Shown here: positions 1,567 to 41,291 of the stretch, in pieces
How positions within the stretch are numbered: the stretch's first letter is position 1
Layout of the letters: each line of letters starts with the position of its first letter
Program-made: the position numbers and the translations under genes
Notes under the pieces: model-generated
The model's input: the letters and a program-made list of their open reading frames with translations, nothing else
Database searches by the model: none
Told to the model about the DNA's origin: nothing
Source: Bdellovibrionales bacterium
Lineage (GTDB): Bacteria; Bdellovibrionota; Bdellovibrionia; Bdellovibrionales; JAGQZY01
NCBI GenBank assembly: GCA_031426555.1
Contig: JANPLN010000030.1
Span: forward strand, 32,001-96,000
Length of the DNA: 64,000 bases
Reading direction: 5' to 3'

Positions 1567-1749
1567 ATGCCCAACTTTACAGCACTTTAAGTTTCTGAAT
1601 TCTTCCAAAAACTCAAATTGTAAGGAAAAAGACCTCTCGCCAACAGGATGTTGGATCTGCGAGTTGAGCCCACGACGGGCGCGTCTTTTTTCTTACAATT
1701 TGAGTTTTTGTAAGAATTCAGAAACTTAAAGTGCTGTAAAATTAGGCAT
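1567..1749. repeat. Long foldback element E1 (67-bp arms, 49-nt structured core)
   Basis: 1567-1633 is the reverse complement of 1683-1749 with 4 mismatches; the right arm includes the last 24 nt of gspN. Confidence 0.95.
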
Positions 1750-2715
1750 TGGGTCGCTAAATCCGTTCGCCTGGACGCGAAATGCGTAGCGCAGGCCTTC
1801 GCTGGTGGTTGTACTGTATTTGCCGAGATATCCTTGAATGGCATCAGCGGCACTGCCGAGCTTGGCTTGCATGGATTTTTTTAAATTTAAATCCACAGCC
1901 AAGCTGTAGAAGCCAACGGTGGGAGTTCCTCCGGGGAATACACGGATGTCCATTTCACCGGAAATTTTTAAAATCATCTCGTCAGAGCCACTGCCGAGCT
2001 GAGTCTCTTTGAGCAAAAGCTTTCCATTCTTTAACGTGCCTTTGAGAACGACTTTTTGAAAACTCATGGCGGGAAGAGCCATGGGGCCAAAACCCGTTGC
2101 GATTTCGAACTGCGGAATGATCAATTTTGCCAGGCTCATTTCAATCACGCCCTCGGGCTGGGTTTTCATCGATGGATCCAAATCCATCTTCGCGGTCAGT
2201 TGCCCGAGCGCAGACGGGGATACCGGCCAGTTGGGGCCCAAACTTTTTGCGAGAATTTTAACATCAAAATCAGAGTAGTTCAGATCGAGCTCGATCGCCT
2301 GCGGATCTTTGATTTTTGAACTCGCACTGGTTGAGGCCTCGAGCGTTCCGCCAAAAAGACCTTCAGCATCGATGTTGACGTGGGGCTTTAGAACTTTGGT
2401 AAAAGCAAATTGAATACAAGCGAGCACTGATGGTGCCACCTTCAAGTACTTCACTTCGACCTGCTCGATCATAGGACTTTCCACCAGCGCTTGCTTCATG
2501 ATGACGGCTGGACGGGGAAAAAACGACAGGTCCATGCTCTCAAATTCTAGATAAATAAGGCCACTGGCGTTGGTTTCGGCGACGATCTTTTCGCCAAGCT
2601 CAGTCAGTGGAAAAAACACCACGGAAAAAACCAAACAGCACAACAAAAACATGACGATCTTCATTTTGTGAAACAAAAAAATCGTCTTTATAAAATCAAT
2701 CACTGTTCGTAGCAT
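1726..2715 (-). CDS. gspN: Type II secretion system protein GspN-like
   Basis: N-terminal TM ending VVFFP, beta-rich periplasmic body, last gene of the gsp cluster. Confidence 0.75.
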   Translation of the reverse strand: MLRTVIDFIKTIFLFHKMKIVMFLLCCLVFSVVFFPLTELGEKIVAETNASGLIYLEFESMDLSFFPRPAVIMKQALVESPMIEQVEVKYLKVAPSVLACIQFAFTKVLKPHVNIDAEGLFGGTLEASTSASSKIKDPQAIELDLNYSDFDVKILAKSLGPNWPVSPSALGQLTAKMDLDPSMKTQPEGVIEMSLAKLIIPQFEIATGFGPMALPAMSFQKVVLKGTLKNGKLLLKETQLGSGSDEMILKISGEMDIRVFPGGTPTVGFYSLAVDLNLKKSMQAKLGSAADAIQGYLGKYSTTTSEGLRYAFRVQANGFSDPMPNFTAL

Positions 2716-2716
2716 C

Positions 2717-3367
2717 TTATCTCTTCTTTTTACCCGGGGTGGGCTCGTCTTTCATCGGGAGTGAAAGGGAACTCATGGTGAATTTGACTTGAAAGTAATG
2801 GGGATCTTCTTTGTCCGCTTGAATATCAACGCCTGCGAGTTTGGTGTTGGGATGCATGGCCGAGAGTTTTTGGCTGAGCTGAACAATTTGCGTGAGGTTC
2901 AATTTTTTAAGCTCAATGGAAAGGCCTTCTTGTTGGATAGGTCCGGAAACCATTTTGCTGGGAAGGGGTTTATTAACCGGCACATAAGCGCCTTTTTGCG
3001 ATTCAATGATCTGTGTGCTGGTGATCTGTGCATCAATCAATGAGCGCATTTCATCGAAGCTCAGCCCTTTGAATTGATCTGTGCGAATCACCGGGTTGCG
3101 AGCTGTGCGAAACAAATCGCGAATCAACCGGCGGTTGACCTGAAAACTTTCTTCATAGGTTTTTGACGACGACACGAAGGACTCAGGAATGAGATAAATT
3201 GCAAAACCAAGAAAAAAAACCCCACCGAAAATCAAAAGGTTTTGCACCACCGGATTAAAATTTCGGTAGCGCTCCATCAGCTGGATATAGAGGGAGTTTT
3301 CCTGGACGCGGGCAAGCAGCTGCTGAAGGGCTTCTACAATCTTTTCTTTTAGATCCGAAAAATTCAC
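2717..3367 (-). CDS. gspM: Type II secretion system protein GspM-like
   Basis: Single TM followed by a periplasmic ferredoxin-like segment; lies between gspL and gspN. Confidence 0.65.
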   Translation of the reverse strand: MNFSDLKEKIVEALQQLLARVQENSLYIQLMERYRNFNPVVQNLLIFGGVFFLGFAIYLIPESFVSSSKTYEESFQVNRRLIRDLFRTARNPVIRTDQFKGLSFDEMRSLIDAQITSTQIIESQKGAYVPVNKPLPSKMVSGPIQQEGLSIELKKLNLTQIVQLSQKLSAMHPNTKLAGVDIQADKEDPHYFQVKFTMSSLSLPMKDEPTPGKKKR

Positions 3368-4995
3368 AATGTTCCCTTCATCGTAAAGCTAAAAGCAAAC
3401 GCGACGCCTTTGTCCTCTGTGAGCGTGGTTTTTTCGGTGCGAACCTTGTTATTGATCGACATGGGTTCGAGTTTCTTGCGAATCAGATCCACAGTGTTTC
3501 TTTGCTCGGCGATACCTTCCAGGGAAACCTGTGCGTTATTCACACTGACCTTGCGGATGTCGTAGGTTGTTTGCTTATTAGAGGGCAAGGTTGAACTCAG
3601 AAGATTGACCACCTTCATCGAAGGTTCAATGTCTTGAATCTTCGAAAAGATTTTGGCATTTTTCACTTTATCTTGCTCTTGCAGGATGAAGCGCTCAATC
3701 CCTTCGGGAGTGGCCTGCGCCCCGCGAAGGTTTGCGATGGTACCAGCGTGTTTTTGCAGTTCTTGAAATGTGGCATCGTCCAAGCCAACCGCCACCTTTT
3801 CGCGCACAAACCCGTAGCCCGTGTAGAGGACATAAGCAACGGCCGCGAGAGTGAGTGCGTGGCCCCACTTACTCCACGTTTTTTCCCAAAACAGATTGCG
3901 CTTGATACTCTCACCTTGGCGCAGGTTGATTGCAGGATTTTTAGGTCGTTTTAGACCTTCCACCGCAAGACCGATAGCAATGGGAAGTTGTTCTGCCATG
4001 TGGGAAACGGCTTGCACTTGGCGCGGTTGCAAAAGATCGCCGATGACGCTTTCGCTGTTAAAAGGAATACCCACATTTTTAGTGAGGTGAGCATTGATAT
4101 TTTCGATGCGACTGAGGGGGCCTGATAATTGCGCAAAGCCGATGGTTCCACGAAAGCGATCTTGGCAATCCAGAATCGTCATTCGCAACTGTTGAGTAAA
4201 ATCCAGCATGGATTTTTCGATGGTCTCTGAAAGTCGCAGCTCTTGAGCGGAGGCCCCGGCCATCATCATCAATAACCGCATTTGATCGGGAATCAGAGTT
4301 GCCGCTTGATCGTAGGGATAGTTAAAGGTTTTCATGAGTTCGAGGATCAAATTCTTTTCACCCCAAGAAATGGTTCGGGTCCAAACGAGTTGGCGCTGTT
4401 GATAGAGCGAAACCAACGTGTGGTCGTGGCGCACAAACAAGCGCATCATCATGGGAGTTGGAATGGTTTCTGGAGCACTCTGTAAGTACGACCCATTCTG
4501 CCAGTCTTCGACCAGGTTTGCAAAAGCCGCGCCCTCGGCACTAATGAGATCTGGATCGATCTGTACGCGCGCTAAAAGATCAACCAATTGAAGGACTTCT
4601 TTTTGTGGGGTCGCAAAAACCAGGACGGCGGTTTCGTTGGCGTTTTGCGAAACTGTTTTGGCATCAAAAAAGCTGTAGTCGCTGCCAAAGGGAAGCTCTT
4701 CATCGAGTTCGAAAGGTAAACTTCGCAAAATATCGAGACGGCGAGAGAAGGGAAAGGAAAGATTGCGGGTGCTCACCAGACGCTGAGGAAGTCCAACGAC
4801 CACAACTTTTTTATCCAGTTCGAAATTCTCTTTGAGAAATTTGAGGCCCTGTAAAAGATCAAGTTCCCAGTTGTCGAGATCGTTGGGATTGAGTGGATAA
4901 AATTCGGCACGATTCACTTCGTACCCGGCGCGATCGACCGTGATCTCTGCCAGCGCGATTCCATTATTGCTTATATCGATACCTATGGCCTTCAT
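3364..4995 (-). CDS. gspL: GspL / PilM-PilN-like inner-membrane platform protein
   Basis: Actin-like N-terminus (AIGIDIS, LPFELDEELPF, AIGLA..INLR), one TM, C-terminal PilN-like domain. Confidence 0.8.
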   Translation of the reverse strand: MKAIGIDISNNGIALAEITVDRAGYEVNRAEFYPLNPNDLDNWELDLLQGLKFLKENFELDKKVVVVGLPQRLVSTRNLSFPFSRRLDILRSLPFELDEELPFGSDYSFFDAKTVSQNANETAVLVFATPQKEVLQLVDLLARVQIDPDLISAEGAAFANLVEDWQNGSYLQSAPETIPTPMMMRLFVRHDHTLVSLYQQRQLVWTRTISWGEKNLILELMKTFNYPYDQAATLIPDQMRLLMMMAGASAQELRLSETIEKSMLDFTQQLRMTILDCQDRFRGTIGFAQLSGPLSRIENINAHLTKNVGIPFNSESVIGDLLQPRQVQAVSHMAEQLPIAIGLAVEGLKRPKNPAINLRQGESIKRNLFWEKTWSKWGHALTLAAVAYVLYTGYGFVREKVAVGLDDATFQELQKHAGTIANLRGAQATPEGIERFILQEQDKVKNAKIFSKIQDIEPSMKVVNLLSSTLPSNKQTTYDIRKVSVNNAQVSLEGIAEQRNTVDLIRKKLEPMSINNKVRTEKTTLTEDKGVAFAFSFTMKGTL

Positions 4996-5047
4996 ATGTC
5001 ACAATTTTACTGGAACAAGAGCTGGGGTTCAAAGCTTATTTGTCGGC

Positions 5048-6355
5048 CTACTTAACGTCCTGGAAAATAACATAAGGAGGTCCCGGTGGCGCAGGCGCTT
5101 CTGCACTTTGGTCGGTATTTTGTTTCTCGAGCTTCCGTTGCTCCTCGATACACTTCTTCTGTTCGTCGCCCGCGGTGGGTTTGTCTTGGCAGATGCACTT
5201 GAATTTTTCTTCTCCGGCCACATCCGCGCATCTCTCGTCGACCGACGTGCTGGATAAACTTTTGCGAAGTCGAGACTGAACTTTTGCAAAATCAAAGACA
5301 ATGGAAGTGATCTCGCGATTCAGGTTTCCCACATTTCCTATACAACTGATGCGGAAGTTGATTTCGGGATCAAAATACAGGGGAATTTTATCTTTATTAA
5401 AATTTGTCGTATTCACCCCAAAACCGCCGATAAAACCAAAAAAATCTTTTTCGTCTTTAAACGGGCCGCCCAAGTTGACATCATTTCGGCGTTTCATAAT
5501 TTCTGTGACCACTTGTTCGGTGATTCCGGGGTCGAGAGCCATGAGCATGGTTTTGTCGGCGTAGTTCACGTTAATGCCCTTACCGCCAAAGACGGTGATG
5601 TTGGGAGCAAGAATCTCGTAGAGCTCGTCTTCCATCATTTTCACCATGTGCAGCTCGTCGATGATTTTGAAGGGTTGGTTGGGGGGGATGTACTGGCTTT
5701 GCATATCGCGGTAGTGCGATCCCTCATCGCCACCCATCAAACTGTTTTTATCGGCATCAATCCAATCGGTGACATGATTGAGCAGATCCTCAAACTTGAA
5801 GTTATAATATTTTTTCGAAAAATCGCCTTGCTCGCGAACTTTTGCCTGGAAGATATCAAGGATTTGCGCCCGTGTTTTTTCGCGGATCACTTTGGATGGA
5901 GACGCCAAATCATTGATATCGATTTTTCCACTTTCACTGGAAATCTGTGAGCTAAAGCGGTGTTTAAAGGTGCTTTGTTTGTTGGCCTTTTTAATTTCGT
6001 CTTGATTTGCCATGGACATATCGTTGTCGGTGGGCAAAGCAAGCGGCCAGGACAAAGGAAACTGCCAAATAATATCCAACATCGACGTGTCGATCATCTG
6101 CGGCTGACCGGGCTGCGCGCCACCGAGGCTGCGCGTGGCCTGCTGATAGGTTTTGATGCGCAAAAGGCTGAGCTCTGTACAGGCTTTTGCAGCGTAATAA
6201 GCTTGCACTCGCTTAACCGTGTTGAGCGAGCCTTGATATTCAACGACCGTGTCTTTTGATATTTCCAAAGCAATAAACATCAGTAAGCTCATAAAAAATA
6301 CCGAAAATAAAATCGCCGAGCCTTTTTGATTGCGTAAAAGTTGAAACGACATCAT
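5048..6355 (-). CDS. gspK: Minor pseudopilin GspK
   Basis: KG|SAILF prepilin-like site, QAYYAAKA, ESGKIDIN, DWIDAD, ININYA-like motifs. Confidence 0.9.
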   Translation of the reverse strand: MMSFQLLRNQKGSAILFSVFFMSLLMFIALEISKDTVVEYQGSLNTVKRVQAYYAAKACTELSLLRIKTYQQATRSLGGAQPGQPQMIDTSMLDIIWQFPLSWPLALPTDNDMSMANQDEIKKANKQSTFKHRFSSQISSESGKIDINDLASPSKVIREKTRAQILDIFQAKVREQGDFSKKYYNFKFEDLLNHVTDWIDADKNSLMGGDEGSHYRDMQSQYIPPNQPFKIIDELHMVKMMEDELYEILAPNITVFGGKGINVNYADKTMLMALDPGITEQVVTEIMKRRNDVNLGGPFKDEKDFFGFIGGFGVNTTNFNKDKIPLYFDPEINFRISCIGNVGNLNREITSIVFDFAKVQSRLRKSLSSTSVDERCADVAGEEKFKCICQDKPTAGDEQKKCIEEQRKLEKQNTDQSAEAPAPPGPPYVIFQDVK

Positions 6356-7263
6356 TGCGTAAGTCCCGGTGGGGGAGTGGTGGTAGGCGTGCCCTGTTGC
6401 CCGGCTGTGCCTGCGGGAGCAAAGCGCTTGGCTGGATCCGTATTGTTGGGAAAGCGAATGGTGGCGATGATTGTTTGGCGAAATTTGCCAATCTCTTTAT
6501 TGTCTTTGTCGTGCACCTCTAAAACCACGCGTACCATGTTTGGAAATATATTTTGCGTTTGCGGGGAGCCGTTGTTGTCGGTGAGCCAACTCTTTTTCCA
6601 TTCCTTGTCATTTTGATCTTCGCTGAGGTATTCAAAATGAAAATCACTCACATTTTCCACAAGCGGTGTGGCCATGCCGCCGCGAGTGACGTCGTTATCA
6701 ATGAGGGTTGAGGCTCGTCGCCACAAACATCGGCTCGTTTTGTCGGTGACGCGGGATTTGCAATCGGCAAGGTAGTAGCCCACTTCGCTCTGGTTGCTTT
6801 CCTGCGCATTGAATGTGGTGCGCTGGTGGTTGAGCGTTGTGAAATGCAATTGGTCGTCCTTGCCGATAAATTGTGTGAGTCGTTCGGGTGGTGGAGGCAA
6901 AGTGAGGTCTTCCCCATCGGCGGTTGTTGCCACCTGGGGGGGTGGTTGGCCGGGAACGGTTCCTTGCTGCGACTGAATTTGTTGCGCGATCACCTGGCGA
7001 TCGAGTTCGTAAAGAGCGTACTGGTAATGAAACGCGCGTTCCACGTCTGTGGCTACGATGCGAAGGGCATCAAACACCACGGTTTCGGTTTTGAGTCGCG
7101 CATCGATTTTATTTTTATTTAAGAGAGCGCCTTTAATCGCTCGCGAGGCAATGAGGGCCATGACCGCCAAGATCCCAAGCACAATCAAAGTTTCGAGAAG
7201 GGAAAAGCCTTGGGATTTAATTCGTTTCGCCGGTCGTACCGTTGTTTCCGCCTGAACCATCAT
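6352..7263 (-). CDS. gspJ: Minor pseudopilin GspJ
   Basis: QG|FSLLE class III signal; start placed at ATG 7263/7260 after GGAGG. Confidence 0.85.
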   Translation of the reverse strand: MMVQAETTVRPAKRIKSQGFSLLETLIVLGILAVMALIASRAIKGALLNKNKIDARLKTETVVFDALRIVATDVERAFHYQYALYELDRQVIAQQIQSQQGTVPGQPPPQVATTADGEDLTLPPPPERLTQFIGKDDQLHFTTLNHQRTTFNAQESNQSEVGYYLADCKSRVTDKTSRCLWRRASTLIDNDVTRGGMATPLVENVSDFHFEYLSEDQNDKEWKKSWLTDNNGSPQTQNIFPNMVRVVLEVHDKDNKEIGKFRQTIIATIRFPNNTDPAKRFAPAGTAGQQGTPTTTPPPGLTQ

Positions 7264-7846
7264 TCCCTCCTCCCCCGGTGACTCCACCGCCGTTTGCTCC
7301 GCCGCCGCCAAGACTTGGTAAGGGCAGTGTTTGCGAATAATCGATTAAAAATGTCGAAGCCGAATATTGCACCGTATTTTTTTTGTACTTGTAAATGATG
7401 GTGACGGTGAGCTCCCGCACCGACTGATTAAAAAAATCCGTCATTTGCTGGATGATCATAGTAAACATGGGATTTTGTGCATCGCCACCGCTTTGCTGCG
7501 AAAGGAGGGGGCCGAGATCTGGCATTTCAAATTTTTTCGAGACCATTTTCCAAGCGTAGTCTTTGTAAGTGGTGTCGAGATCGGCAAAGTCGCCCTCGTC
7601 GTCTTCAGGTAAAAGTGAAATTTCGTTGCGGTACCGTCGGTCCAGTTCGGCCACCTTCAGATCAAGTAGATAGGCCACTTGATGATTCACTTTCATTTTT
7701 TTAAGACGCAAATTACTTGTCGACCACGCCATGGACACAACAATCAAAGCACCTGCGATCACCGACAGTGCCACCAGCACTTCGATCAAGGAGAATCCTC
7801 TTTGGGTTTTCAAAGGAGTCATCGGTCGAATCGATACCAGACTCAT
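7217..7846 (-). CDS. gspI: Minor pseudopilin GspI
   Basis: RG|FSLIEVLVAL class III signal; position between gspH and gspJ; Gly-rich tail. Confidence 0.85.
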   Translation of the reverse strand: MSLVSIRPMTPLKTQRGFSLIEVLVALSVIAGALIVVSMAWSTSNLRLKKMKVNHQVAYLLDLKVAELDRRYRNEISLLPEDDEGDFADLDTTYKDYAWKMVSKKFEMPDLGPLLSQQSGGDAQNPMFTMIIQQMTDFFNQSVRELTVTIIYKYKKNTVQYSASTFLIDYSQTLPLPSLGGGGANGGGVTGGGGNDGSGGNNGTTGETN

Positions 7847-8454
7847 TGGAAGTCCTTTAATTTTTTTTCTTTATTGATCAAATCCACTCGCCCGGTGAGA
7901 GGGTGAATCGCCAGGGACCAGTTGAGTTTATCGCCGTCAGAAATATGAACGACGGCTTCTTCCACGCGACCTTCGGGAAAAAAATGAATATAAACCCGAC
8001 CGGCGGTGTATTCTTTTTTTTGCGCGGCAATTTCCACACTTTTAAAAATCAAGCCGTTCGAAAGGGGTTGCGGACCGCCTTTGGAAAGTTCTTTGTCTGC
8101 CTCGAAGCCCGAGGGATCTTTGTCCTTGTCTTCTTCGCGCAAGTTTTCCCGGCGTCGTTTGAGCTCGTCTTGATCGTAGGTGATCAACGCGTTCCTGCTC
8201 GAAGACTCCACCCAGTAGGATTGCTTCTCTTTCGTATCCTCGGGCATGTTGATGACTAAACGGAACGTGGCATTGCGCATGCGCGCTTTGTTGCGCAAAT
8301 CGCGAATCTGCGCCGCAAAGATGCGAACATCTCGGCGCATTTCCCGGCCTTCGTTTTTTCCGATTCTTTGGCTTAACAAAGCCACTGTAAGACCTACGAT
8401 GGCGAGAACAATGAGGATCTCGATAAGACTAAAGCCTTTTGAGTTTTTTCGCAC
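7843..8454 (-). CDS. gspH: Minor pseudopilin GspH
   Basis: KG|FSLIE signal, IHFFPEG and HPLTG GspH/FimT-type motifs. Confidence 0.85.
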   Translation of the reverse strand: MRKNSKGFSLIEILIVLAIVGLTVALLSQRIGKNEGREMRRDVRIFAAQIRDLRNKARMRNATFRLVINMPEDTKEKQSYWVESSSRNALITYDQDELKRRRENLREEDKDKDPSGFEADKELSKGGPQPLSNGLIFKSVEIAAQKKEYTAGRVYIHFFPEGRVEEAVVHISDGDKLNWSLAIHPLTGRVDLINKEKKLKDFQ

Positions 8455-8470
8455 GAGACCTCAAGGTGAA

Positions 8471-8902
8471 TTAGCGTAATTTTTTGCTGGAGATATCTTC
8501 GCCGGCCGCTTCGCCCCCGGGACGCTTGTTTTTGCCGTAGCTGGTGATCTCAAAATCAGTTCCATCGGATTCATAATTCATTTTGTTCTTCCAAGCGTCT
8601 TTTGGTTCTTCTTTTGCGTAGGGAGCTGGACCCCAGGATTCACAAGCCTCGCCCGGTTTTTTTACTAGAGCGATCAAACCTTGCTCTGTGGTTGGGTAAG
8701 AGCCGCAGTCATTGTTGTAGAGCTCGAGCTGATCGATCACCTGACGCATGATAATTTCAGTTTGCTTGCGATTGGCGTTATCCTGAGCGCCGCCAACGCG
8801 AGTGGCGATCAAGGCGACGATTCCGCCGACAAGGGCAAGAACGATCAAAATTTCAATTAACGAAAAACCTTTGTTTGATAATTTAAAATTATTTTTTCTC
8901 AC
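8471..8902 (-). CDS. gspG: Major pseudopilin GspG
   Basis: KG|FSLIE, YPTTEQGL.AL, KDAW, ITSYG...PGGE motifs. Confidence 0.95.
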   Translation of the reverse strand: MRKNNFKLSNKGFSLIEILIVLALVGGIVALIATRVGGAQDNANRKQTEIIMRQVIDQLELYNNDCGSYPTTEQGLIALVKKPGEACESWGPAPYAKEEPKDAWKNKMNYESDGTDFEITSYGKNKRPGGEAAGEDISSKKLR

Positions 8903-8945
8903 AATTTCTCCTCATTTATTTACAATGACTTAACAAGTTTTCGCT

Positions 8946-10163: not shown

Positions 10164-10181
10164 AAATAAACCTCAAAGTTT

Positions 10182-14396: not shown

Positions 14397-14555
14397 GGGT
14401 GTATCCTCAATTTGGCAAGTCCATAGAACGAATGATTTCGAGCTGACTCTTCGTTACTTCTCCTCACGTTAGCGTTTCACTACCGTTTCGTCGTCGCGCC
14501 TCGATTCAGCTCGAAATCATTCGTTCTATGGACTTGCCAAATTAAGGATACACCC
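14397..14555. repeat. Long foldback element E2 (50-bp arms, 59-nt core)
   Basis: 14397-14446 is the reverse complement of 14506-14555 with 1 mismatch. Confidence 0.95.
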
Positions 14556-14623: not shown

Positions 14624-14693
14624 CGAGTCCAATAAGACTCGACCCCAAAAAGACGCGAGTCCAATAGGACTCGACCCCAAAAAGACGCGAGTC
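14624..14693. repeat. 32-bp tandem repeat (2.2 copies), each unit with an internal palindrome
   Basis: CGAGTCCAATA(A/G)GACTCGACCCCAAAAAGACG at 14624-14655 and 14656-14687, then CGAGTC. Confidence 0.9.
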
Positions 14694-14794
14694 AAAAAAA
14701 CTAACACAGCAATTCAGTGCGAATTTTCTCGCACAAGGTCGAGATGACAAAAGGGGAGGTCCTCTTTTGCTAAACATTTGTTACTCTGTTCCTT

Positions 14795-15872: not shown

Positions 15873-16562
15873 ATGGGGATGAGCACTGTATTAATGTTTA
15901 CAGGTCGCAGTGGGGTAGATCAGTTAGAGTTTCGTCAGCAGTTGTTGCGGGTTCCAGAAGTGTCGATCACTCTGAAAACGGCGCAAGCAATTCTCGAAGC
16001 CAGCCAGCACAAAGAAGCAAAAGAGCTTATGAGCTTGGCGCACTACGAAACAAACGAATATTTATCTGCCGGTCTTTGGCGAGATTTCTTAGCGCAATTG
16101 ATGCAAATCGGTCTTTATCGTCGTTACGAAAAATTATCAGCCCGACCACAATATATAATCGGCGACTCTGGCGAATGCTCAGCTTCAGCTGTGTGTTTAG
16201 GAGCCATGACTCTCGAAGAGTACGTGGGGCGCTTTTTGGAGCAGCTCGAAAAACGAAACGCCGAAGAACAATCCAAGGAATTTTTAGTTGGTCACCGTTT
16301 AGAAAGTGCAAAAATTTACGAGCGCACGTTTGAAGGCTACGTCGTTAAATCCGAAGGCAAAGATCTCTGGAGTTTGTTTGATGATCTTCGCAAAGATCAT
16401 TTGATCGACCAGATAGTCACCCTGGGCACAGCACCAAGTAACAACTGGCACATCGAGCAGGATCTCGGCATGGTGGAATCGGTTGTGATGGATCCTTTGC
16501 TCAGCTGGATGCTACCTTACTTGCGTTCTAGCACTGTGCCGCTGAATGTGGCTTACGGATAG
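15873..16562 (+). CDS. Hypothetical protein, remotely FabD/acyltransferase-like N-terminal fold
   Basis: VLMFTG start and PQYIIGDSG resemble the FabD LFPGQG and GHSxG motifs but are degenerate. Confidence 0.4.
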   Translation: MGMSTVLMFTGRSGVDQLEFRQQLLRVPEVSITLKTAQAILEASQHKEAKELMSLAHYETNEYLSAGLWRDFLAQLMQIGLYRRYEKLSARPQYIIGDSGECSASAVCLGAMTLEEYVGRFLEQLEKRNAEEQSKEFLVGHRLESAKIYERTFEGYVVKSEGKDLWSLFDDLRKDHLIDQIVTLGTAPSNNWHIEQDLGMVESVVMDPLLSWMLPYLRSSTVPLNVAYG

Positions 16563-16568: not shown

Positions 16569-16705
16569 ATTTTTAACTTTTAGATACAATTTTTTTAGAA
16601 CCTCCCTTTTAAGACGCGCCCATCCATGGACTCAGTTGCCCCCGTCCGGGTCGCAAAGGTCTTAAAAGGGAGGTTCTAAAAAAATTGTATCTAAAAGTTA
16701 AAAAT
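16569..16705. mobile_element. MITE-like foldback element E3 (perfect 47-bp arms, 43-nt core) with 7-bp flanking direct repeat
   Basis: 16569-16615 is the exact reverse complement of 16659-16705; GACTGCG lies at 16562-16568 and 16706-16712. Confidence 0.8.
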
Positions 16706-31110: not shown

Positions 31111-31133
31111 AGTACGTGGGTCCTTTTGCGACC

Positions 31134-34004: not shown

Positions 34005-34124
34005 TTCCAATGACGAGCGTAAGCTCGTCATCCTACCTTGGAAAACACAGTTATTAAAACCCGCCGATTCAAATTATCGCCGCCGGGAAGCTCAATCAGC
34101 CTGCGTTCCCCAGATTGCTCCGCT

Positions 34125-34526
34125 TTAAAACTGTTGATCCCAGACGTTGCATCGGCTGATGGAATAGTCCAGCGAACCAAAATTGTAGGTGATAAAACCT
34201 GGAAGTGATGTGGTCTGGCCGTTCTCGAGAGCGTCGAGAAGATTTTGGCTGACTGTAACCAAATCAAAACTCCCTGAGAAAATTCCTTCAACATAATAGA
34301 CTCTTTTTTCAGCTGTAGAGAGGTCTTTAGATACTTCAGCTTTATCGATTTCTGTGTAAGACATCGGTGCCTCTTTGCAATCGTCCTCAGAGAAGTCGTA
34401 GCGGCAAATCGATACAGTTGTGGCACTAAGTTTTACCAAACTTTTGCGTTCACACTTCAAAAAATAACTTTTAGCAAAGGCCTGATGGGTCATCGCAGTA
34501 ACAAGTAAAAAAAATAATAATTTCAT
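34125..34526 (-). CDS. Small secreted hypothetical protein
   Basis: Signal peptide MKLLFFLLVTAMTHQAFA, SD GGAGG, 4 Cys. Confidence 0.75.
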   Translation of the reverse strand: MKLLFFLLVTAMTHQAFAKSYFLKCERKSLVKLSATTVSICRYDFSEDDCKEAPMSYTEIDKAEVSKDLSTAEKRVYYVEGIFSGSFDLVTVSQNLLDALENGQTTSLPGFITYNFGSLDYSISRCNVWDQQF

Positions 34527-34638
34527 AAAACCTCCGAGTTACACTCATAGTACTGATGCTAACCGGAAAATATTAAGTATTGAAAGACTCTATGTAAAAG
34601 TAACAGTGTTATGAGACAAACCTAACAGGTTCGTAAAT

Positions 34639-35055
34639 CTATTCTTTGCTCGCAGGAAGTCGAACGTCGACAGGCTTTGCGCTGATTTTTAATTCGATGG
34701 GATTGGCACCATCTGTCGGCGGTAAAAAGCGAACAGACGAGGTTTCGTACGATGATGTTTCCAGATTGGCACGCAGGGGATCTTGTCCTTCGCCATCTTT
34801 CATTTCGGTATATTCCAGTGCAATTTTATAAGCGCGATCCGAGTAGCCGGTGGTTCTTGGCGAGAGGGAAAGTTTGAAACTTAAACCATCTGATGATTGC
34901 GAAATAAAAGCGCTTTCACCATCAGTGGCGACAATGTGAGATGTTGAATCCAACTCTCCATTTTTCCAAATTTCCACTTCGATTTGCACTTTTTGCTTAG
35001 GGGATGCAGACGCAGTTAAGGTCGTAAATAAGATCAAAATAACAGATGCGCGCAT
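34639..35055 (-). CDS. Small secreted hypothetical protein
   Basis: Signal peptide MRASVILILFTTLTASA, SD GGGAG, beta-rich; ends RLPAS. Confidence 0.7.
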   Translation of the reverse strand: MRASVILILFTTLTASASPKQKVQIEVEIWKNGELDSTSHIVATDGESAFISQSSDGLSFKLSLSPRTTGYSDRAYKIALEYTEMKDGEGQDPLRANLETSSYETSSVRFLPPTDGANPIELKISAKPVDVRLPASKE

Positions 35056-35393
35056 TAAAACTCCCCCATAACCACATTACAAAGCAAAACCTGTGTTCTT
35101 GCAAGCTCAGAGAGAAAAGCCTGCCTCCCAAAGGTCCTTTTGAGAGGAGCGGGAAACGGGGTGAGTATTTTTTAGAATATCTTCTTGTATCTATATGAAT
35201 TTATTGCATAATTTCGATGTCTTTTTGCCGCCTTTAGGGGCTCGTCGGGTTCCGCCCCAAGCCTGCTCCGACAATGCACCAAAATTGCAACTTTTATTGG
35301 ACAATGAGTCCGTGGTTGGATAAAAGAAACAACGCTTTATCTATTATAGGCCCACAAAGTAAGCACTGCTTCGCCTGTAAGGAAGGAAAAAAT

Positions 35394-35585
35394 ATGAAAG
35401 CAAAAACCCATTCCGGGGCCAAGAAACGACTTCGCGTCCTCAGCCGAGATAAGATCAAAAGAAAACAAGCACGCCTTCGTCACTTGATGAAGAACAAAAG
35501 TTCTAAACGCAAAAGACAATTGGGCGATGTAATTTACGTGGATGCTGCGAATCTTCCAAACACTCGCAGATGTTTTAATATTTAA
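35394..35585 (+). CDS. rpmI: 50S ribosomal protein L35
   Basis: MKAKTHSGAKKR...RHLM..KSSKRKRQL. Confidence 0.95.
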   Translation: MKAKTHSGAKKRLRVLSRDKIKRKQARLRHLMKNKSSKRKRQLGDVIYVDAANLPNTRRCFNI

Positions 35586-35599
35586 GAAGGCGGATTGAG

Positions 35600-35947
35600 A
35601 TGAGAGTAAAAGGCGGAGTCGTCAGCCGTAGACGACGTAATAAAGTTTTAAAAAGAGCAAAAGGTTATTATTCTTCTGGAAGTCGCTTATATATTTACGC
35701 GAAAGAAAGAAACGATCGTGCGTTAGCGTATGCGTATCGCGATCGTAAACAAAAAAAGAGACATTTCAGAAAACTATGGATCATCCGTATTTCTGCTGCA
35801 ACCAAACTGAATGGCGTAAGCTATTCAAAATTTATGGGTGCACTTTTGAAAACAGACATCCAACTCGATCGCAAATTGCTGGCTGATATGGCGATTTTTG
35901 ATCCAAAAGGGTTCTCTGCTCTCGTGCAAAAAGTAATGCCGAAGTAG
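35600..35947 (+). CDS. rplT: 50S ribosomal protein L20
   Basis: MRVKGG...AKGY, YAYRDRK.KKR.FRKLWI.RI, LDRK.LADMA. Confidence 0.98.
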   Translation: MRVKGGVVSRRRRNKVLKRAKGYYSSGSRLYIYAKERNDRALAYAYRDRKQKKRHFRKLWIIRISAATKLNGVSYSKFMGALLKTDIQLDRKLLADMAIFDPKGFSALVQKVMPK

Positions 35948-35986
35948 ACTGTTAGTTTTTTGAAACTAAATCTTTAGGGATTAATT

Positions 35987-37012
35987 ATGGTGAGCTTTGA
36001 AGAAAGAAAGAGAGATCATATTGAAATTTCTCTTTCTTCGCAAAGCCAGTCGCAAGTGGTCGACGGGCTCAATCGCATTGAGCTCATACACGAAGCCCTC
36101 CCAAATCTTAATTTCTCAGACATATCTCTAAAAACAGAAACTCTTGGTTTAGACGTAGACACTCCGTTGTTTGTGTCGTCCATGACTTTGGGGCACTCGG
36201 CATCATTTGCCGTGAACGAAGTTTTAGCTCTCGTTTGCCAAGAAAAAAACATGCTCATGGGCGTGGGTTCGCAGCGCCGACAGTTGGAAGATAGCGAAGC
36301 CAAAAACGAGTGTTTGCGACTGCGAAAAAAATTTCCAAAACTGAAAGTGATGGGCAACTTGGGCCTTGCTCAGGTGATCGAAACTCCTATCGCGCAAATT
36401 CAAGGTCTGGTTGATTCGCTGGAAGCTCAGGCCATGATCGTTCATACCAATCCACTTCAAGAGTGCATACAACCTGAAGGAACGCCACGCTTTCGCGGCG
36501 GTTTAGTAGCCCTCGAAAAACTTTGCGCTCAGTTATCTGTGCCTGTGATTTTAAAAGAGACGGGCTGCGGGTTTTCTTTAAAAACGTTAGCGCGCCTCCA
36601 AGAGACGGGTCTCGCGGCGATTGATGTGAGTGGCCGTGGTGGAACTCACTGGGGCCGTGTTGAGTCACAACGTCTTTCTGCTGAACAGATTCAATTCTCG
36701 GCCGGCCAAACTTTTGCCGACTGGGGCATTTCTACGGTGGAATCTCTGCTAGCGGCAAAAAGCTTGCAGCTGACGGCTGAAGTGTGGGCCTCGGGTGGCG
36801 TGCGCACAGGTTTGGATACTGCAAAACTCTTGGCCATGGGTGCAAGCATGGTTGGCTTAGCACAGCCTTTGTTGGCCGCGGCTCTCGAAGGCGAAGAAAA
36901 GCTTGTGCAGCAGATTGATCAAATAAATTACGAGTTGATGGTGGCGATGTTTTGTTCGGGAACAGAATCTGTGTTGGAGCTGCGAAGAGGTGATGTGTGG
37001 AAAATGAAATAA
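35987..37012 (+). CDS. fni: Type 2 isopentenyl-diphosphate isomerase
   Basis: RK.DHI, H.ALP, MGVGSQR, H.NPLQE.IQPEG, KETGCG, GGTHW, ASGGVR. Confidence 0.95.
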   Translation: MVSFEERKRDHIEISLSSQSQSQVVDGLNRIELIHEALPNLNFSDISLKTETLGLDVDTPLFVSSMTLGHSASFAVNEVLALVCQEKNMLMGVGSQRRQLEDSEAKNECLRLRKKFPKLKVMGNLGLAQVIETPIAQIQGLVDSLEAQAMIVHTNPLQECIQPEGTPRFRGGLVALEKLCAQLSVPVILKETGCGFSLKTLARLQETGLAAIDVSGRGGTHWGRVESQRLSAEQIQFSAGQTFADWGISTVESLLAAKSLQLTAEVWASGGVRTGLDTAKLLAMGASMVGLAQPLLAAALEGEEKLVQQIDQINYELMVAMFCSGTESVLELRRGDVWKMK

Positions 37013-38334
37013 AATCTCTGTTCAAAGGATTTTCGAAACTCAAGCGCTCAGAGCGCTTTCAAAAGCTTGTAGAAATTGGCGCTTTGGATTCGTCGGATGT
37101 TTCGTTTCTTAAAAATGGCGGAATCAAAGACTTCGACATGGCCGATAACTTTATCGAAAACTCCATCGGCTATTTTCAGCTTCCGCTGGGCGTGGCTACC
37201 AATTTTCGCATTGATGGCGTTGAGTATGTGATTCCCATGGCGGTGGAAGAAACCTCCATCATTGCAGCTGCTAGTAAGACCGCGCGCTGGATTAGCGAAC
37301 GTGGCGTGATCACCACCGAAGTGATTGGCGAAAATATTATCGGGCAGGTACAAATTGCCCGCGTGAAAGATTTTTTAAAACTTCAGACGGTTCTCGAAGC
37401 AAAAAAACAACATTGGATCGATGAACTGAACCAAGTTGTAGCGCAGGGAATGTACGCGCGCGGCGGTGGCGTCCGCGATATCGTCGCTCGACAAATCACC
37501 AGACCCGATGGCGATGTGATGGCCATTTTACATATTCATTTAAATCCGTGCGACGCCATGGGCGCCAATATTATCAATCAGGTTTGTGAGTACATCACCG
37601 GCCCCATCGAAGAAGCCACTGGCGAAGCCGTCACCATGCGCATTCTCTCAAACTTAGTGGATACAAAACTTACGAAAGCGCGTGTTGAGATGCGCGGGAT
37701 CGACAGCAAAATTGGCGAGGCCATTCAAGAGGCGTCGCTGTTTGGCGAAATTGACTCCTATCGTGCGGCCACCAACAACAAGGGTGTTCTCAATGGCATT
37801 GATCCCATTCTTATCGCCACAGGCAACGACTGGCGCGCGGTTGAGGCGGGCATACATGCGTTTGCGGCGCGTGATGGTCAGTACCGCTCGATCACCAAGT
37901 GGCGCTTTGAAAATAACATTCTCACGGGCGAGTTTTTAGCGCCGCTCATCGTCGGCACGGTGGGTGGTGTGACGACCCTTCACCCAACAGCAAAGATGGC
38001 CATGAAAATGATGAAGATCGAAAGCGCCAATCAGCTTTCGCGCGTTTGCGCCAGTGTAGGCTTGGTACAAAATTTGGGAGCTCTCCGGGCTCTGACTTCC
38101 GAGGGCATTATCGAAGGTCATATGAAGCTGCATATCAAAAACCTGGCCATGGGCGCAGGTGCCAGCGAGCAGGAATCGCCGACGCTGCATAATCTCCTTG
38201 AACAGGTTCTTAAGGCTAAAAAAAGAATTTCACTTTCGGATGCGATTCAAATGCTAAAAAATATTCGTTCGGTGAAAGACTCGGTGAAAGATCCGATGAG
38301 AGAGACAGCTAAGCATGTCACAACTCCGTCTTAG
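36997..38334 (+). CDS. mvaA: HMG-CoA reductase, class II
   Basis: EN.IG, PMAVEETSIIAA, DAMGANIIN, RAAT.NKG..NG, ATGNDWRAVEAG, GHMKLH. Confidence 0.96.
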   Translation: MENEIKSLFKGFSKLKRSERFQKLVEIGALDSSDVSFLKNGGIKDFDMADNFIENSIGYFQLPLGVATNFRIDGVEYVIPMAVEETSIIAAASKTARWISERGVITTEVIGENIIGQVQIARVKDFLKLQTVLEAKKQHWIDELNQVVAQGMYARGGGVRDIVARQITRPDGDVMAILHIHLNPCDAMGANIINQVCEYITGPIEEATGEAVTMRILSNLVDTKLTKARVEMRGIDSKIGEAIQEASLFGEIDSYRAATNNKGVLNGIDPILIATGNDWRAVEAGIHAFAARDGQYRSITKWRFENNILTGEFLAPLIVGTVGGVTTLHPTAKMAMKMMKIESANQLSRVCASVGLVQNLGALRALTSEGIIEGHMKLHIKNLAMGAGASEQESPTLHNLLEQVLKAKKRISLSDAIQMLKNIRSVKDSVKDPMRETAKHVTTPS

Positions 38335-39199
38335 CCTTCCCAGTAAAACCTTTCTACTTGGCGAATATTTAGCCCTTTCCACTGGTCCCTCTTTCGTGGT
38401 TGCCACAGAACCTCGATTTGAATTCAAATTTTGTGTGGGCGATTTTTTAAAAACAGTTCATCCACAAAGTCCAGCTGGTCTTTTTTATAAAAAATGTCAA
38501 AAAGATGTTGGCCCGATGCAAATCGAAATGACCAAGCCCACAAAAAGTATTGGCGGTTTTGGAGAATCAACGGCGCAGTATTTGGCTTTGTGGCATTATG
38601 CAAAAGCCGTTAAAAAAAAACAGCCAATGGATGTGAATGCCCAGTTTGTCGAAGAGTGCTGGCAGGATTATCGCGATTTATTTCCCCAGGCACCGCCCAG
38701 CGGTGCAGATCTTATCAATCAACTTTGCGGCGGCCTGACGGTTTGGGATCCCATTAAAAAAGATGTGCAAAAGTATGAGTGGCCCTTTCCCGATCTGAAA
38801 CTTTATTTGCTAAAAACATCCCATAAAATCAAGACCCACGAGCACCTGGCATCCATGGACCCCGAGTCCATTCCGACGGCGGCGTTGAGCGAAATTATGC
38901 AAAATGCTTTAGTGGCCTTAAAGGAAAAAAATTCCGTTGGTTTTCTGCGCCAATCCATCATGTACACAGAAGAGCTTTATCGCGCGGGTCTGCAATCTCC
39001 AGACACGATGGTGCTGATTGGTAAGATCGCCACGCGGGCCAATGTTCTCTGCGCACGGGGCTGTGGAGCCCTGGGGGCCGATGTGATTGCCGTATATGGT
39101 TCACCCGGTGCCGAAATTGATTTTTCGGATCTTTCACTCACACCTGTTGCCACCCTGCCAGAGAGTATAAGTTCGGGACCCGTTTGGCGGTGGTCGTGA
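38315..39199 (+). CDS. Divergent GHMP kinase, probable phosphomevalonate kinase
   Basis: PSKTFLLGEY, GGFGESTA, PSGAD, GCGALGAD; position in the mevalonate cluster. Confidence 0.7.
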   Translation: MSQLRLSLPSKTFLLGEYLALSTGPSFVVATEPRFEFKFCVGDFLKTVHPQSPAGLFYKKCQKDVGPMQIEMTKPTKSIGGFGESTAQYLALWHYAKAVKKKQPMDVNAQFVEECWQDYRDLFPQAPPSGADLINQLCGGLTVWDPIKKDVQKYEWPFPDLKLYLLKTSHKIKTHEHLASMDPESIPTAALSEIMQNALVALKEKNSVGFLRQSIMYTEELYRAGLQSPDTMVLIGKIATRANVLCARGCGALGADVIAVYGSPGAEIDFSDLSLTPVATLPESISSGPVWRWS

Positions 39200-40179
39200 T
39201 GTGGGAAGCATCGGCACCTGCAAATATCGCCCTTATTAAATATATGGGGAAGCGCAGTTTCAGCTCTGCAAACACCACTCAAGCGAACGTCAACGTCGCG
39301 ATAAATCCTTCGGTCTCTTGGACCTTGGATCACCTGCGAAGTTTTGTGCAGCTAGAGCTTGTTGACGCCAACGAAGGCCAGAGCGACCTGTGGCAGCCAC
39401 ATCCCCAATGGGCGTTAGAAATGAGTGAAGTGGGGCTACAGAAATATCTTGCCCATCTTCAACGCGTAAAAAAAATGTTTTCCGCCGAAAACTATTTTTT
39501 TAAAGTGCGATCGGGAAATAATTTTCCAGCAGATTGCGGAATCGCCAGCTCGGCTTCGAGTTTTGCAGCGTTGACTCTCGTGTCGTCGCAAGCTCTGGCG
39601 CACTTGACCAAAAAGCCTCTTCCAGCGATGGAGACCCTTGCAGATTTGAGTCGACAAGGCTCCGGCTCGTCGTGCCGCTCGTTTTTTTCGGGTTTTGTAG
39701 TTTGGGAAGAGCAGGGCGTGCGAAAACTGCCAACAACTACTACGCTTCACCACCAAGTCGTCATCGTGAGTGGCGATAAAAAACAAGTGTCTTCGTCACA
39801 GGCCCATCAACGAGTTCAGTCGAGTTTACTAATGAAGCAACGGGAAGAGCGTGTTCAGGTGCGTTTTACGTCGCTGTGTGAGCAACTACTCAGTGGCACC
39901 CCCGATTGGAAAAAGTTATATGAACTCACGTGGTCGGAATTTTGGGACATGCATGCTCTCTTCGAAACCAGTGACCCCTCCTTTGGCTATATGACATCAA
40001 AATCGCTGGAGGTTCTGAATATCGTGCGCGAATATTGGCTGCAAAAACAGGACGGCCCTCTCGTGACCATGGACGCAGGCCCCAATGTGCATTTGTTATG
40101 GCGACACGATCAAAGGACCATGGCCCAGGAGTTTGCAAAAGCAAACCCGCAATGGAAGTGGATTGAGGACGCCCGATGA
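39199..40179 (+). CDS. mvaD: Diphosphomevalonate decarboxylase
   Basis: APANIALIKYMGK, NNFP..CGIASSAS, R.GSGSSCRS, TMDAGPNVH. Confidence 0.95.
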   Translation: MWEASAPANIALIKYMGKRSFSSANTTQANVNVAINPSVSWTLDHLRSFVQLELVDANEGQSDLWQPHPQWALEMSEVGLQKYLAHLQRVKKMFSAENYFFKVRSGNNFPADCGIASSASSFAALTLVSSQALAHLTKKPLPAMETLADLSRQGSGSSCRSFFSGFVVWEEQGVRKLPTTTTLHHQVVIVSGDKKQVSSSQAHQRVQSSLLMKQREERVQVRFTSLCEQLLSGTPDWKKLYELTWSEFWDMHALFETSDPSFGYMTSKSLEVLNIVREYWLQKQDGPLVTMDAGPNVHLLWRHDQRTMAQEFAKANPQWKWIEDAR

Positions 40180-40199
40180 GGTCGCCAATTGAGGAAACC

Positions 40200-41069
40200 A
40201 TGAGTTTTAAGCATCGAGTTTTTGGCAAATGGATTTTAGCCGGCGAGCACGCTGTGCTTCGCGGTCACACGGCCATGGTGTTTCCAGTGACGTCTTGTTA
40301 CTTCGAAATTGAATACAAACCATCTTCCAATAAAATCAATCTCACTTGTGATTCAGATCAGGGTGAGCAAATGAAAATGGTTTTTATGGGTTTGCTGAAC
40401 AAAGCACTTTCGGATCTCGGCAAAGAAACCACGGAGCTCACTGGCGAGCTGAGTATTTTCAATCGCATCCCCTTGGTCGGTGGGATGGGCGCGAGTGCCG
40501 CTATCTGCGTATCCGTCGTAAAATTTTTAAATTATTTAGGATTTGTGGAAGAGGATAAAGTTTTTTCATTCGCCAAGTCCTTGGAAGATTTGTTTCACGG
40601 TGAGAGCAGCGGCGTGGATGTGGCCATTGCACTTCAAGCTCGTCCTTTGCTTTATAAGATTGGCGAATTTATTCCCTTTGATCCCCAGTGGAAACCCTAT
40701 TTGTATTTATCCCATTGTGGAAAACGTGGAGTCACAGCCGATTGCATTCGGCGGGTTAAAAAATTATGGCAAACCAATGAAAGTTTGGGCCAGATGATTG
40801 ATCTCGATATGCAACGCAGCTTTGAACTGGCGCAAAAAGCCCTGAGCAGACCCGATTCGATGCATGAACTCCAGCAATCCATTTTGCTCGCGCGATCCTG
40901 TTTTGAGCGCTGGGGCTTGGTGAGTGTGGAGTTGAGCGAGCACATGAACGAGCTTCACAAGCTGGGCGCCATTGCCACCAAGCCCACCGGCAGCGGCGAT
41001 GGCGGTTTTGTTTTAAGCCTCTGGGACCAGAAGCCCACTACCACATCGATCGACCTCCTCGAGTGCTAG
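40200..41069 (+). CDS. mvk: Mevalonate kinase
   Basis: GKWILAGEHAV, P..GGMGASAA, E..FHG.SSGVD, K.TGSG.GG. Confidence 0.9.
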   Translation: MSFKHRVFGKWILAGEHAVLRGHTAMVFPVTSCYFEIEYKPSSNKINLTCDSDQGEQMKMVFMGLLNKALSDLGKETTELTGELSIFNRIPLVGGMGASAAICVSVVKFLNYLGFVEEDKVFSFAKSLEDLFHGESSGVDVAIALQARPLLYKIGEFIPFDPQWKPYLYLSHCGKRGVTADCIRRVKKLWQTNESLGQMIDLDMQRSFELAQKALSRPDSMHELQQSILLARSCFERWGLVSVELSEHMNELHKLGAIATKPTGSGDGGFVLSLWDQKPTTTSIDLLEC

Positions 41070-41075
41070 GTACGG

Positions 41076-41291
41076 ACACACTTTTTGGGACTCATTGCAT
41101 AAAATTTCTTGCACGAGAATTCCTTAAACCTTTTATTTATTTCGCAGCACTCGCGGACACGGGCTCGTCTTCGTAGGTCGTCATTGCATGACGCCCCACG
41201 GATACGCCCCGTTCGCACGTGAGCTCGTAAATAAAAAGTTTAAGGAATTCTCGTGCAAGAAATTTTATGCAATGAGTCCCAAAAAGTGTGT
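41076..41291. repeat. Long foldback element E4 (64-bp arms, 88-nt self-complementary core)
   Basis: 41076-41139 is the reverse complement of 41228-41291 with 1 mismatch; lies between convergent genes. Confidence 0.95.

Follow-up and report, generated by a model that had tools for sequence, protein, structure and literature searches.

Introduction

The enzymes of the IS200/IS605 group and the RAYT proteins have an established single-strand (Y1) biology. Here we describe four long inverted repeats, E1 to E4, that lie in a 64,000-nucleotide stretch of DNA (the window) from a Bdellovibrionales bacterium (NCBI GenBank assembly GCA_031426555.1, contig JANPLN010000030.1, positions 32,001 to 96,000 of the forward strand), and we compare these foldback elements with the dispersed repeats of Y1 systems and with the TwoAYGGAY motif (RF01731). 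The REP terminus of REPIN/RAYT systems is described as a short palindrome with a 5' GT(A/G)G tag (PMC6006769), and REPIN spacers are reported to form hairpins and to be non-identical, with compensatory changes (PMC3116915, PMC3337134). The TIRtron, as presented in PMC3733652, consists of a Y1 gene between non-GTAG terminal inverted repeats (TIRs) that recur as a dispersed, dimer-forming family.

TwoAYGGAY is described as a conserved core carried by an external stem that is itself poorly conserved, and CsrA binding has been proposed for it (Gardner and Eldai, PMC4333381). Its outer stem is U-rich on the 5' side and A-rich on the 3' side in the seed rows of the Weinberg supplement (PMC2864571). 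A 2026 preprint (10.64898/2026.09.22.753630) reports that its copy number is extremely variable and that 68% of its doublets are divergent (median distance 249 nucleotides), and leaves the link to mobility unresolved. Finally, template switching is reported to keep the arms of inverted repeats matched, resulting in their concerted evolution (PMC5941160).

On comparison of the window with related genomes, these elements are non-coding foldback insertions. We consider it probable, if far from certain, that they are non-autonomous and of the REPIN/TIR-dimer type, that a Y1 (HUH) transposase mobilises them in single-stranded form, and that their arms are rewritten in place.

Foldback elements and a terminus shared with a Y1 gene

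The four inverted repeats reported in the initial annotation are all present, with arms of 47 to 67 bp and 0 to 4 mismatches; the longest comparable inverted repeat in 30 locally shuffled windows measures 10 to 14 bp, versus 67 bp in the real sequence. A census of the genome to which the window belongs (G000; 3.14 Mb in 72 contigs), requiring arms of at least 30 bp and a spacer of up to 100 nucleotides, yields 52 foldbacks. Most of these can be assigned to one of four families, F1 to F4, defined by the tip between the arms, which bears out the earlier suspicion that several families are involved.

Young copies of families F1, F2 and F4, including E4, share a terminus, R3, that usually starts in a stop codon. 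In E4 it spans positions 41,067 to 41,093 on the plus strand and begins at the TAG stop of a GHMP-kinase gene. Two inverted copies of this terminus surround the hairpin spacer in the young F1, F2 and F4 copies, and in E4 one end has been replaced. The replacement of the distal terminus is a 46-nucleotide hairpin module (41,292 to 41,337, plus strand) that has three copies in the genome, every one beside an R3 element, and that adjoins R3 elements in the sister genome G003 too. An R3-like stretch is retained in 19 of the 52 foldbacks and the full outer part in 8, where the looser motif may match T-rich arms by chance. The old copies E1 and E3 have no R3 terminus left.

The same terminus flanks a transposase gene. 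In the second sister genome, G001 (G001 and G003 are the closest relatives of G000), an intact 197-amino acid Y1 gene lies between inverted R3 copies; its product carries NHYH and YxxxNP motifs and matches PF01797 (Y1_Tnp) with 40 bits against a cut-off of 23. Its ortholog in G003 is found at a different locus with R3 upstream, and the contig ends inside the gene. Three more Y1 genes of this type occur in the genus, each with its own terminus, and those termini are dispersed repeats as well. Y1 genes of this type are present in 24 of the 26 genomes of the order that carry F1 tips versus 51 of the 95 that do not, a tendency that is inflated by kinship. Thus, the proposed involvement of a Y1 enzyme gains support from the shared terminus and from this co-occurrence, but it is weakened by the fact that the R3-linked gene itself is not in the G000 assembly.

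The initial annotation had contrasted conserved cores and variable arms with ordinary miniature inverted-repeat transposable elements (MITEs), which conserve their terminal repeats and vary in the middle. In that form the contrast is not supported, because young copies such as E4 do carry a multicopy terminal repeat, which in the sister genomes flanks a Y1 gene. The pattern is likely that of a REPIN/TIR-dimer element with eroding ends, not its reverse.

Two side observations concern the modules and genes of this type. At the E4 site of the relative G002 there is an F1-type element whose first hairpin has a longer hairpin nested inside it that is related to the E4-adjacent module, such that these modules nest mutually. 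Also, a Y1 gene of G000 that lies beside a terminus named R1 (contig C37, 14,796 to 15,398) apparently lacks its N-terminus relative to the G001 ortholog, and a relative of the 46-nucleotide module is found at its downstream end.

Orthologous sites in related genomes

On the comparison of orthologous sites proposed in the initial annotation, sites prove to be empty, filled or differently filled from one sister genome to the next. At the E1 site, G001 lacks any insertion, G003 has a short doublet with a different terminus, and G002 has an F2 element that carries this different terminus. The E2 site is empty in G001, G002 and G003, and in the relative G004 it carries an F3 tip in the opposite orientation with different arms. 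At the E4 site there is no insertion in G001 and an F1 tip within R3 ends in G003; a further site, on contig C15, has an F4 element in G000 and G001 and again an F1 tip within R3 ends in G003. In addition, G003 contains one R3 doublet without a tip, which looks like the deletion product of a full element. With regard to target duplication, only a CTAG repeat was found at the E4 site, and no regular duplication is established.

Apparent inversions of the core were considered and dropped. Among 30 assigned pairs, 8 looked flipped; on inspection most of these were either the partner copy within a doublet or a separate insertion, and all 8 were set aside. Two apparent flips of F4 lie between near-perfect arms, may have been made by the assembly, and were not counted as inversions.

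That the palindromes themselves are assembly or amplification fold-back artefacts is exceedingly improbable. There is one G003 contig (L126) that does fold back at an element, and contigs built with short k break at perfect arms; the contigs of sequencing run X1 break inside E2 and E3, where overlapping pieces nevertheless cover both elements with no differences. However, the arms carry mismatches and enclose structured spacers, and orthologs with different arms are found in independent genomes. A single contig of run X1, which may derive from the source sample, bridges E1 with 0 differences, and a contig from a different study (X4) covers positions 1,373 to 1,710 with 10 differences. E3 occupies the same site in G001 and G003. 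For E1 and E3, the concern about artefacts raised in the initial annotation is therefore refuted by independent contigs and orthologs.

Tip families and their distribution

Family F1 includes E1 and E3, which are the only two elements of the window that match its covariance model, R1. The E1 tip (1,634 to 1,682, plus strand) scores 66.8 bits and the E3 tip (16,616 to 16,658, minus strand) scores 61.1 bits. The initial annotation had recognised the core shared by these two elements, but had read it on the other strand in each case; the strands given here are the better reading. Its two inner hairpins, with pairing kept despite sequence change, are upheld by F1 alignments across copies.

There are 31 matches to R1 in G000 (E-value of at most 0.001), and 24, 10, 25 and 22 copies in G001, G002, G003 and G004, respectively, so the possibility that the shared core has no further copies can be set aside. 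The tip occurs in 26 of 121 genomes of the order. In a 141-genome sample of the phylum searched with strict filters, R1 matches were found only in G000 and five genomes of the same order. All 33 copies examined from outside the genus sit on unrelated arms of 31 to 92 bp, and no gene family is found repeatedly next to F1 copies in the order, orthologous pairs excepted.

The other families are smaller. F2 is found at 14 places in G000 by our own count, and occurs with two kinds of ends. F3 has E2 as its single copy in G000 but is multicopy in G005 and G004, with many copies there, of which 20 were retrieved. F4, which includes E4, has three copies in G000. The F2, F3 and F4 tips share the architecture of F1 without its GGA-type loops.

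Concerted change and probable rewriting of the arms

The arms of E1 (1,567 to 1,633 and 1,683 to 1,749; 67 bp, 4 mismatches), E2 (14,397 to 14,446 and 14,506 to 14,555; 50 bp, 1 mismatch, or 53 bp at 96% by an alternative detection), E3 (16,569 to 16,615 and 16,659 to 16,705; 47 bp, perfectly complementary with 0 mismatches) and E4 (41,076 to 41,139 and 41,228 to 41,291; 64 bp, 1 mismatch, enclosing the F4 tip at 41,140 to 41,227) are unrelated to each other in all six pairwise comparisons (z at most 1.6). To this extent the dissimilarity claimed in the initial annotation stands, but it does not extend to the genome. At a threshold of z above 4, the E4 arm resembles 13 of 51 other arms, those of E3 and E1 resemble one of 51 each (z of 4.3 for E1), and that of E2 resembles none of 51. 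The whole of E2, including its arms, is 78% like one G005 copy. Because E4 and E2 have such counterparts, the arms are not all locus-specific in origin; they begin with a family resemblance and later change in concert.

To follow the arms over time, 20 regions each from G003 and G001 were taken together with added loci, and 40 F1 elements of relatives were parsed, of which 30 have a partner in G000 and 10 do not. After the 8 pairs in opposite orientation and the fold-back contig were dropped, 21 orthologous pairs at 14 loci were kept. Their 1121 arm columns comprise 165 symmetric substitutions in which pairing is kept, 55 asymmetric ones, 893 identical columns and 8 shared mismatches. Re-alignment of the arms gives 98 transversions, 77 transitions and 15 symmetric indel events, with the caveat that pairs share branches and that T-rich alignments can inflate transversions. 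Symmetric change amounts to 14.7% of the arm columns, whereas the tips differ at 3.9% of positions (41 of 1050); the tip is far better conserved, in line with the contrast of core and arms drawn in the initial annotation. At four-fold sites of nearby genes, 383 of 1295 (30%) and 479 of 1368 (35%) differ. The E3 orthologs illustrate the pattern, with 10 substitutions in G001 and 8 in G003, every one of them compensated.

Independent mutations would hardly produce transversions and indels that are paired between the arms and occur at half the synonymous rate, and therefore the copying of one arm onto the other is likely, and is the plain reading of these changes. The suggestion that arms are homogenised locally is thus well founded with regard to the excess of symmetric over asymmetric columns. 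The initial annotation had attributed this to snap-back synthesis after nicking by an HUH enzyme; ordinary template switching during replication would explain the same data.

Copying also reaches the ends of host genes. Among the foldbacks scanned, four have an arm that overlaps the end of an open reading frame (ORF) by at least 14 nucleotides. In all four, the overlapping arm is host coding sequence that is present in relatives without the element, and the end of the opposite arm is its mirror copy (25 nucleotides for E1, 20 each for the elements on contigs C31 and C57, and 14 for that on C42). In E1, positions 1,725 to 1,749 of the right arm are the end of the minus-strand ORF 1,726 to 2,715 and are present in G001 and G003 without E1, and the outer 25 nucleotides of the left arm (1,567 to 1,591) are the inverted copy of this gene end and are not found at the orthologous site in G001 or G003. 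The inner arms are not host-derived, and are missing from empty sites. Consequently, the claim that arms are made locally holds for their outer 14 to 25 nucleotides, and not for the rest of these 61- to 76-nucleotide arms.

At one locus (contig C57, 58,420 to 58,603), the mirror copy of a downstream gene end apparently supplies the last codons and the stop codon of the upstream gene, whose C-terminus differs from those in G001 and G003.

These observations bear on the model offered in the initial annotation, wherein the tip alone is the mobile unit, and an HUH nick followed by snap-back synthesis builds the arms afresh from local DNA. This model accommodates the mirrored gene ends in all four arms tested, the finding of different tips within the same ends at the E4 and C15 sites, the presence of F1 across the order on unrelated arms, and the absence of a common terminus from the arms of E1 and of the G004 copies. 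However, the host-derived part is confined to the outer portion of the arms and only four foldbacks overlap ORF ends to this extent. Furthermore, inner arms are not present at empty sites, young copies share long family arms, the tip-less G003 doublet suggests that tips are lost from doublets, and no Y1 gene is flanked by tips. We regard this model as improbable.

The F1 tip and the TwoAYGGAY motif

Read on the strand opposite to that chosen in the initial annotation, the F1 tip forms a basal stem and two hairpins with A(N)GGA(Y) loops. Among 17 loci of G000, the matches to RF01731 extend over the full model length, with scores of 27.8 to 42.4 bits and all on the GGA strand. The gathering cut-off of 43 bits is never reached, as 42.4 bits is the best score and none of 41 genomes has a match above the cut-off. 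E1 alone, within a stretch of 128 nucleotides, gives no RF01731 match, and there are no matches to Rfam in the window at the gathering level. Matches to plant miRNAs and similar long-hairpin Rfam families, at the level of E-values, were dismissed as generic.

Paired cells make up 93.4% of the MAFFT alignment and 95.5% of the model-fitted alignment, versus 25 to 46% in slid controls. Covariation is observed in 18 of 21 pairs, in an alignment that was fitted to the structure and in which many hairpin pairs are copied, not selected. The GGA is kept in the second loop of 53 of 56 copies and in the first loop of 35 of 56, where it is often replaced by CGA or TGA; 12 of 30 G000 copies have it in both loops. 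The E1 tip has GGA in its first loop (1,646 to 1,648) and CGA in its second. Thus, F1 resembles TwoAYGGAY and may work like it or descend from it, while it remains below the threshold for membership.

The two strands of these elements are not equivalent. Mismatches in the arms favour G.T on the GGA strand by 21 to 2 in G000 (p = 7e-5). The same bias is seen at 10 to 3 in G001 and 12 to 4 in G003 (neither significant alone nor independent), 14 to 3 in G004, and 28 to 9 in the 33 copies outside the genus. For F2 it is 11 to 5, and on the purine strand of F3 it is 20 to 1 among 20 copies. With respect to the abutting gene, the GGA strand of the 30 G000 copies is antisense in 20, sense in none, both in 4 and neither in 6, in a count that leaves out ORF calls running through elements (with them it is 20 to 5). 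Outside the genus there are 14 antisense and 4 sense cases among the 33 copies, under a wider distance limit. F2 leans the same way, 5 to 1. Most F1 copies in G000 (24 of 30) lie within 40 nucleotides of a stop codon.

These patterns indicate that the fold of one strand is under constraint and that this strand is not that of the adjoining mRNA. All four parsed F1 doublets are divergent and their flanking genes converge at two of the four, where the antisense placement of the GGA strand accounts for the divergent arrangement.

One possibility is that the F1 tip acts as an RNA of the TwoAYGGAY type, bound by CsrA and kept for its regulatory function, with the arms serving as a scaffold stem. The full-length matches to RF01731, which all fall on the GGA strand, the retained loops and the covariation speak for this reading. 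Likewise, csrA is present in G000 and in 112 of 121 genomes, binding by CsrA has been put forward for TwoAYGGAY itself, and the CsrA of B. bacteriovorus is active in a reporter (PMC13443453). However, all 20 copies that allow a decision have the GGA strand antisense to the abutting gene, which places it outside that mRNA and argues against a cis-acting CsrA site, and fewer than half of the G000 copies have GGA in both loops, with CGA in one loop of E1. Three other families share the architecture without GGA loops, with F2 leaning to the same polarity. Moreover, csrA of G000 lies beside fliW in a flgK-flgL-csrA-fliW block of the protein-antagonist type, and sites turn over between sister genomes. 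G004 gives no csrA match despite its 22 F1 copies; the flgK-flgL-csrA-fliW block is missing and five flagellin genes are present, and the absence of csrA is most likely an assembly gap. CsrA could possibly bind antisense or read-through RNA. Overall, regulation through CsrA is a doubtful explanation of why the tip is conserved, and one that would be compatible with spread by a Y1 enzyme.

The position behind stop codons could also suggest bidirectional intrinsic terminators, or stabilisers of mRNA 3' ends, that are maintained by selection. This is very unlikely. On either strand the 5' arm is T-rich (42% T) and the 3' arm is A-rich, the reverse of a U-tract, and no U-tract follows the stem. 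The wobble pairs favour the strand other than that of the abutting mRNA, E2 lies between divergent genes, and close relatives have empty sites. Transcript ends may nevertheless be affected incidentally.

At the E4 site of G003 there is an 11-nucleotide tandem array on the side of the element away from the gene, which recalls the 5' arrays reported for Pseudomonas TwoAYGGAY.

Proposed mode of spread

By analogy with IS200/IS605 and RAYT biology, a Y1 enzyme of the R3 type would move the elements as single-stranded DNA; their insertion is mostly directly behind a stop codon. Template switching by a polymerase between the arms would copy one arm onto the other. Mirror copying extends outward into the ends of host genes. 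The terminus erodes and the tip persists as a conserved fold that is read on one strand only. We favour recognition of the tip as single-stranded DNA over a cis-acting function in the mRNA of the neighbouring gene.

Mirror copying could also provide an old tip with a new pair of ends that are specific to a given enzyme. An exchange of ends around old tips would explain why the F1 tip is found across the order and R3 only in this genus, and why F2 has two kinds of ends. Perhaps ancient, non-coding single-stranded DNA tips, both the TwoAYGGAY-like one and unrelated ones built alike, persist across the order by changing vehicles, wherein mirror copying captures a Y1 end that lands beside the tip, thereby makes the hairpin a substrate of that enzyme, and later erases the end, a scenario that we offer as speculative and rather unlikely.

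Several observations weigh against movement by the R3-type enzyme. The R3-linked Y1 gene was not found in the G000 assembly, which has only two other genes of the type, one of them apparently lacking its N-terminus. These two paralogs score 57.4 and 51.4 against the cut-off of 80 for the NCBIfam RAYT model (NF047646), and the R3-linked protein was scanned with Pfam. R3 is not palindromic and lacks a constant GT(A/G)G tag. At 53 Y1 loci, no F1 tip is found up to a distance of about 1.5 kb. Among the G004 copies of F1, 16 were inspected and have no common terminus, and the only Y1 gene of this type in that genome has a different one. E1 is missing from both closest relatives and yet shows no remnant of R3, which fits local creation of the arms as well as it fits erosion. 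The second GGA loop is retained while its stem covaries, as expected of a CsrA-binding RNA. Finally, there is no leading or lagging strand bias (14 to 16, by a crude GC skew), and neither excision nor transposition was observed in the contigs.

If tips do change vehicles, the RNAs of the TwoAYGGAY type would travel as passengers of HUH transposases at the level of DNA, and each of their divergent doublets would represent two polarised insertions behind convergent stop codons. The preprint (September 2026) describes TwoAYGGAY elements as expanding like mobile DNA and leaves the mobiliser unnamed; a TwoAYGGAY-like tip between termini that also bracket a specific Y1 gene supplies a named enzyme and substrate, and hence a candidate mobiliser. 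Antisense polarity would be a simple and checkable cause of divergent doublets, and it questions the reading of these elements as CsrA sponges. Concerted evolution of the arms is measured directly in the series of orthologs, which also indicates that hairpins copy the ends of coding genes; this would be a route by which repeats lose their family identity and escape repeat finders.

Other features

E2 (14,397 to 14,555, minus strand) lies between divergent genes that are gspD-like and gspC-like by Pfam, and its F3 tip is a long stem with GAC/GAG tracts and a purine-rich minus strand. Between E2 and the gspC-like gene there is a 32-nucleotide tandem repeat (14,624 to 14,703), and at the same place in G002 there is another array with a unit of about 27 nucleotides. 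E3 starts 6 nucleotides past the stop codon of the plus-strand ORF 15,873 to 16,562. In G001, an extra short palindromic repeat separates the stop codon from the E3 ortholog, and a similar one is found in G002 at the C42 site.

Five degenerate 36-nucleotide repeats (48,739 to 48,936) lie within the ORF 48,519 to 49,382, which has no Pfam match. A gene for an AcrB-type RND pump (49,395 to 53,930, minus strand) immediately follows one for outer-membrane efflux, and the space between the two holds no ORF of at least 100 amino acids. Positions 58,710 to 59,045 (minus strand) hold a broken copy of a second Y1-like gene family, which has about 11 copies of 72 to 90% identity in G000, several of them broken. 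This family has a conserved upstream region, no REP-like ends were seen for it, and as far as tested it is unrelated to the foldbacks.

There are no tRNA genes within the window. Reverse transcriptase is absent from G000 and present in one of five genomes, and a GxxExxY nuclease was found in none of the five. Each genome has one GIY-YIG gene of UvrC size, and G001 has one extra small gene.

Comparison with known systems

Each ingredient has a precedent, and the combination of a TwoAYGGAY-like tip with the ends of a Y1 enzyme appears to be new. No paper on these elements or on this combination was found, in a search that covered few subscription papers and with preprint supplements that may list Bdellovibrionota matches.

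Like the classical DDE MITEs summarised in PMC3733652, the elements are short, non-coding and multicopy, with terminal inverted repeats. They differ in having a terminus that is that of a Y1 gene and in being best conserved in the middle, and no regular target duplication is established for them. The inverted repeats described in PMC5941160 likewise have arms that stay perfect while their sequence drifts; those are short host repeats, whereas here arms of 45 to 75 bp belong to a repeat family and extend into coding sequence.

The likeness to TwoAYGGAY is restricted to F1 (E1 and E3), as E2 and E4 do not resemble RF01731. F1 shares with it a basal stem that carries two hairpins, each with an A(N)GGA(Y) loop, a long and poorly conserved external stem, and many copies, including divergent doublets a few hundred bases apart (190 to 358 nucleotides here, where the preprint gives its median as 249). 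It differs in its score below the gathering threshold, its shorter second hairpin and the frequent CGA or TGA in the first loop. In the main text of the preprint there is no mention of Bdellovibrio or RAYT, and the question of the mobiliser is left open.

The closest systems, as far as the cited descriptions go, are REPIN/RAYT and the TIR dimers of TIRYT genes. As in these, there are extragenic inverted doublets that form a long hairpin, a terminus that also flanks a Y1 gene (one terminus for each enzyme), non-identical complementary spacers, a position at stop codons, and presence or absence between relatives. With respect to REPIN/RAYT, a Y1 gene is flanked by the same terminus on both sides in G001 and upstream in G003, and was not found in G000. 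With respect to the TIRtron, the gene is bracketed by a non-GTAG terminus that recurs in dispersed and dimer-forming copies. Since R3 has neither the GT(A/G)G tag nor a palindrome, it fits the TIRtron and its TIR dimers more exactly than it fits REPINs. In contrast to the RAYTs described, which are stationary, the R3-linked Y1 gene is found at different loci in G001 and G003. The elements also differ from the REPINs and TIR dimers described in having a conserved tip family that folds on one strand and is older than the terminus, in having several tip families per terminus family and one tip family in two of these, and in having ends that erode while the tip persists and arms that grow by mirroring the ends of genes.

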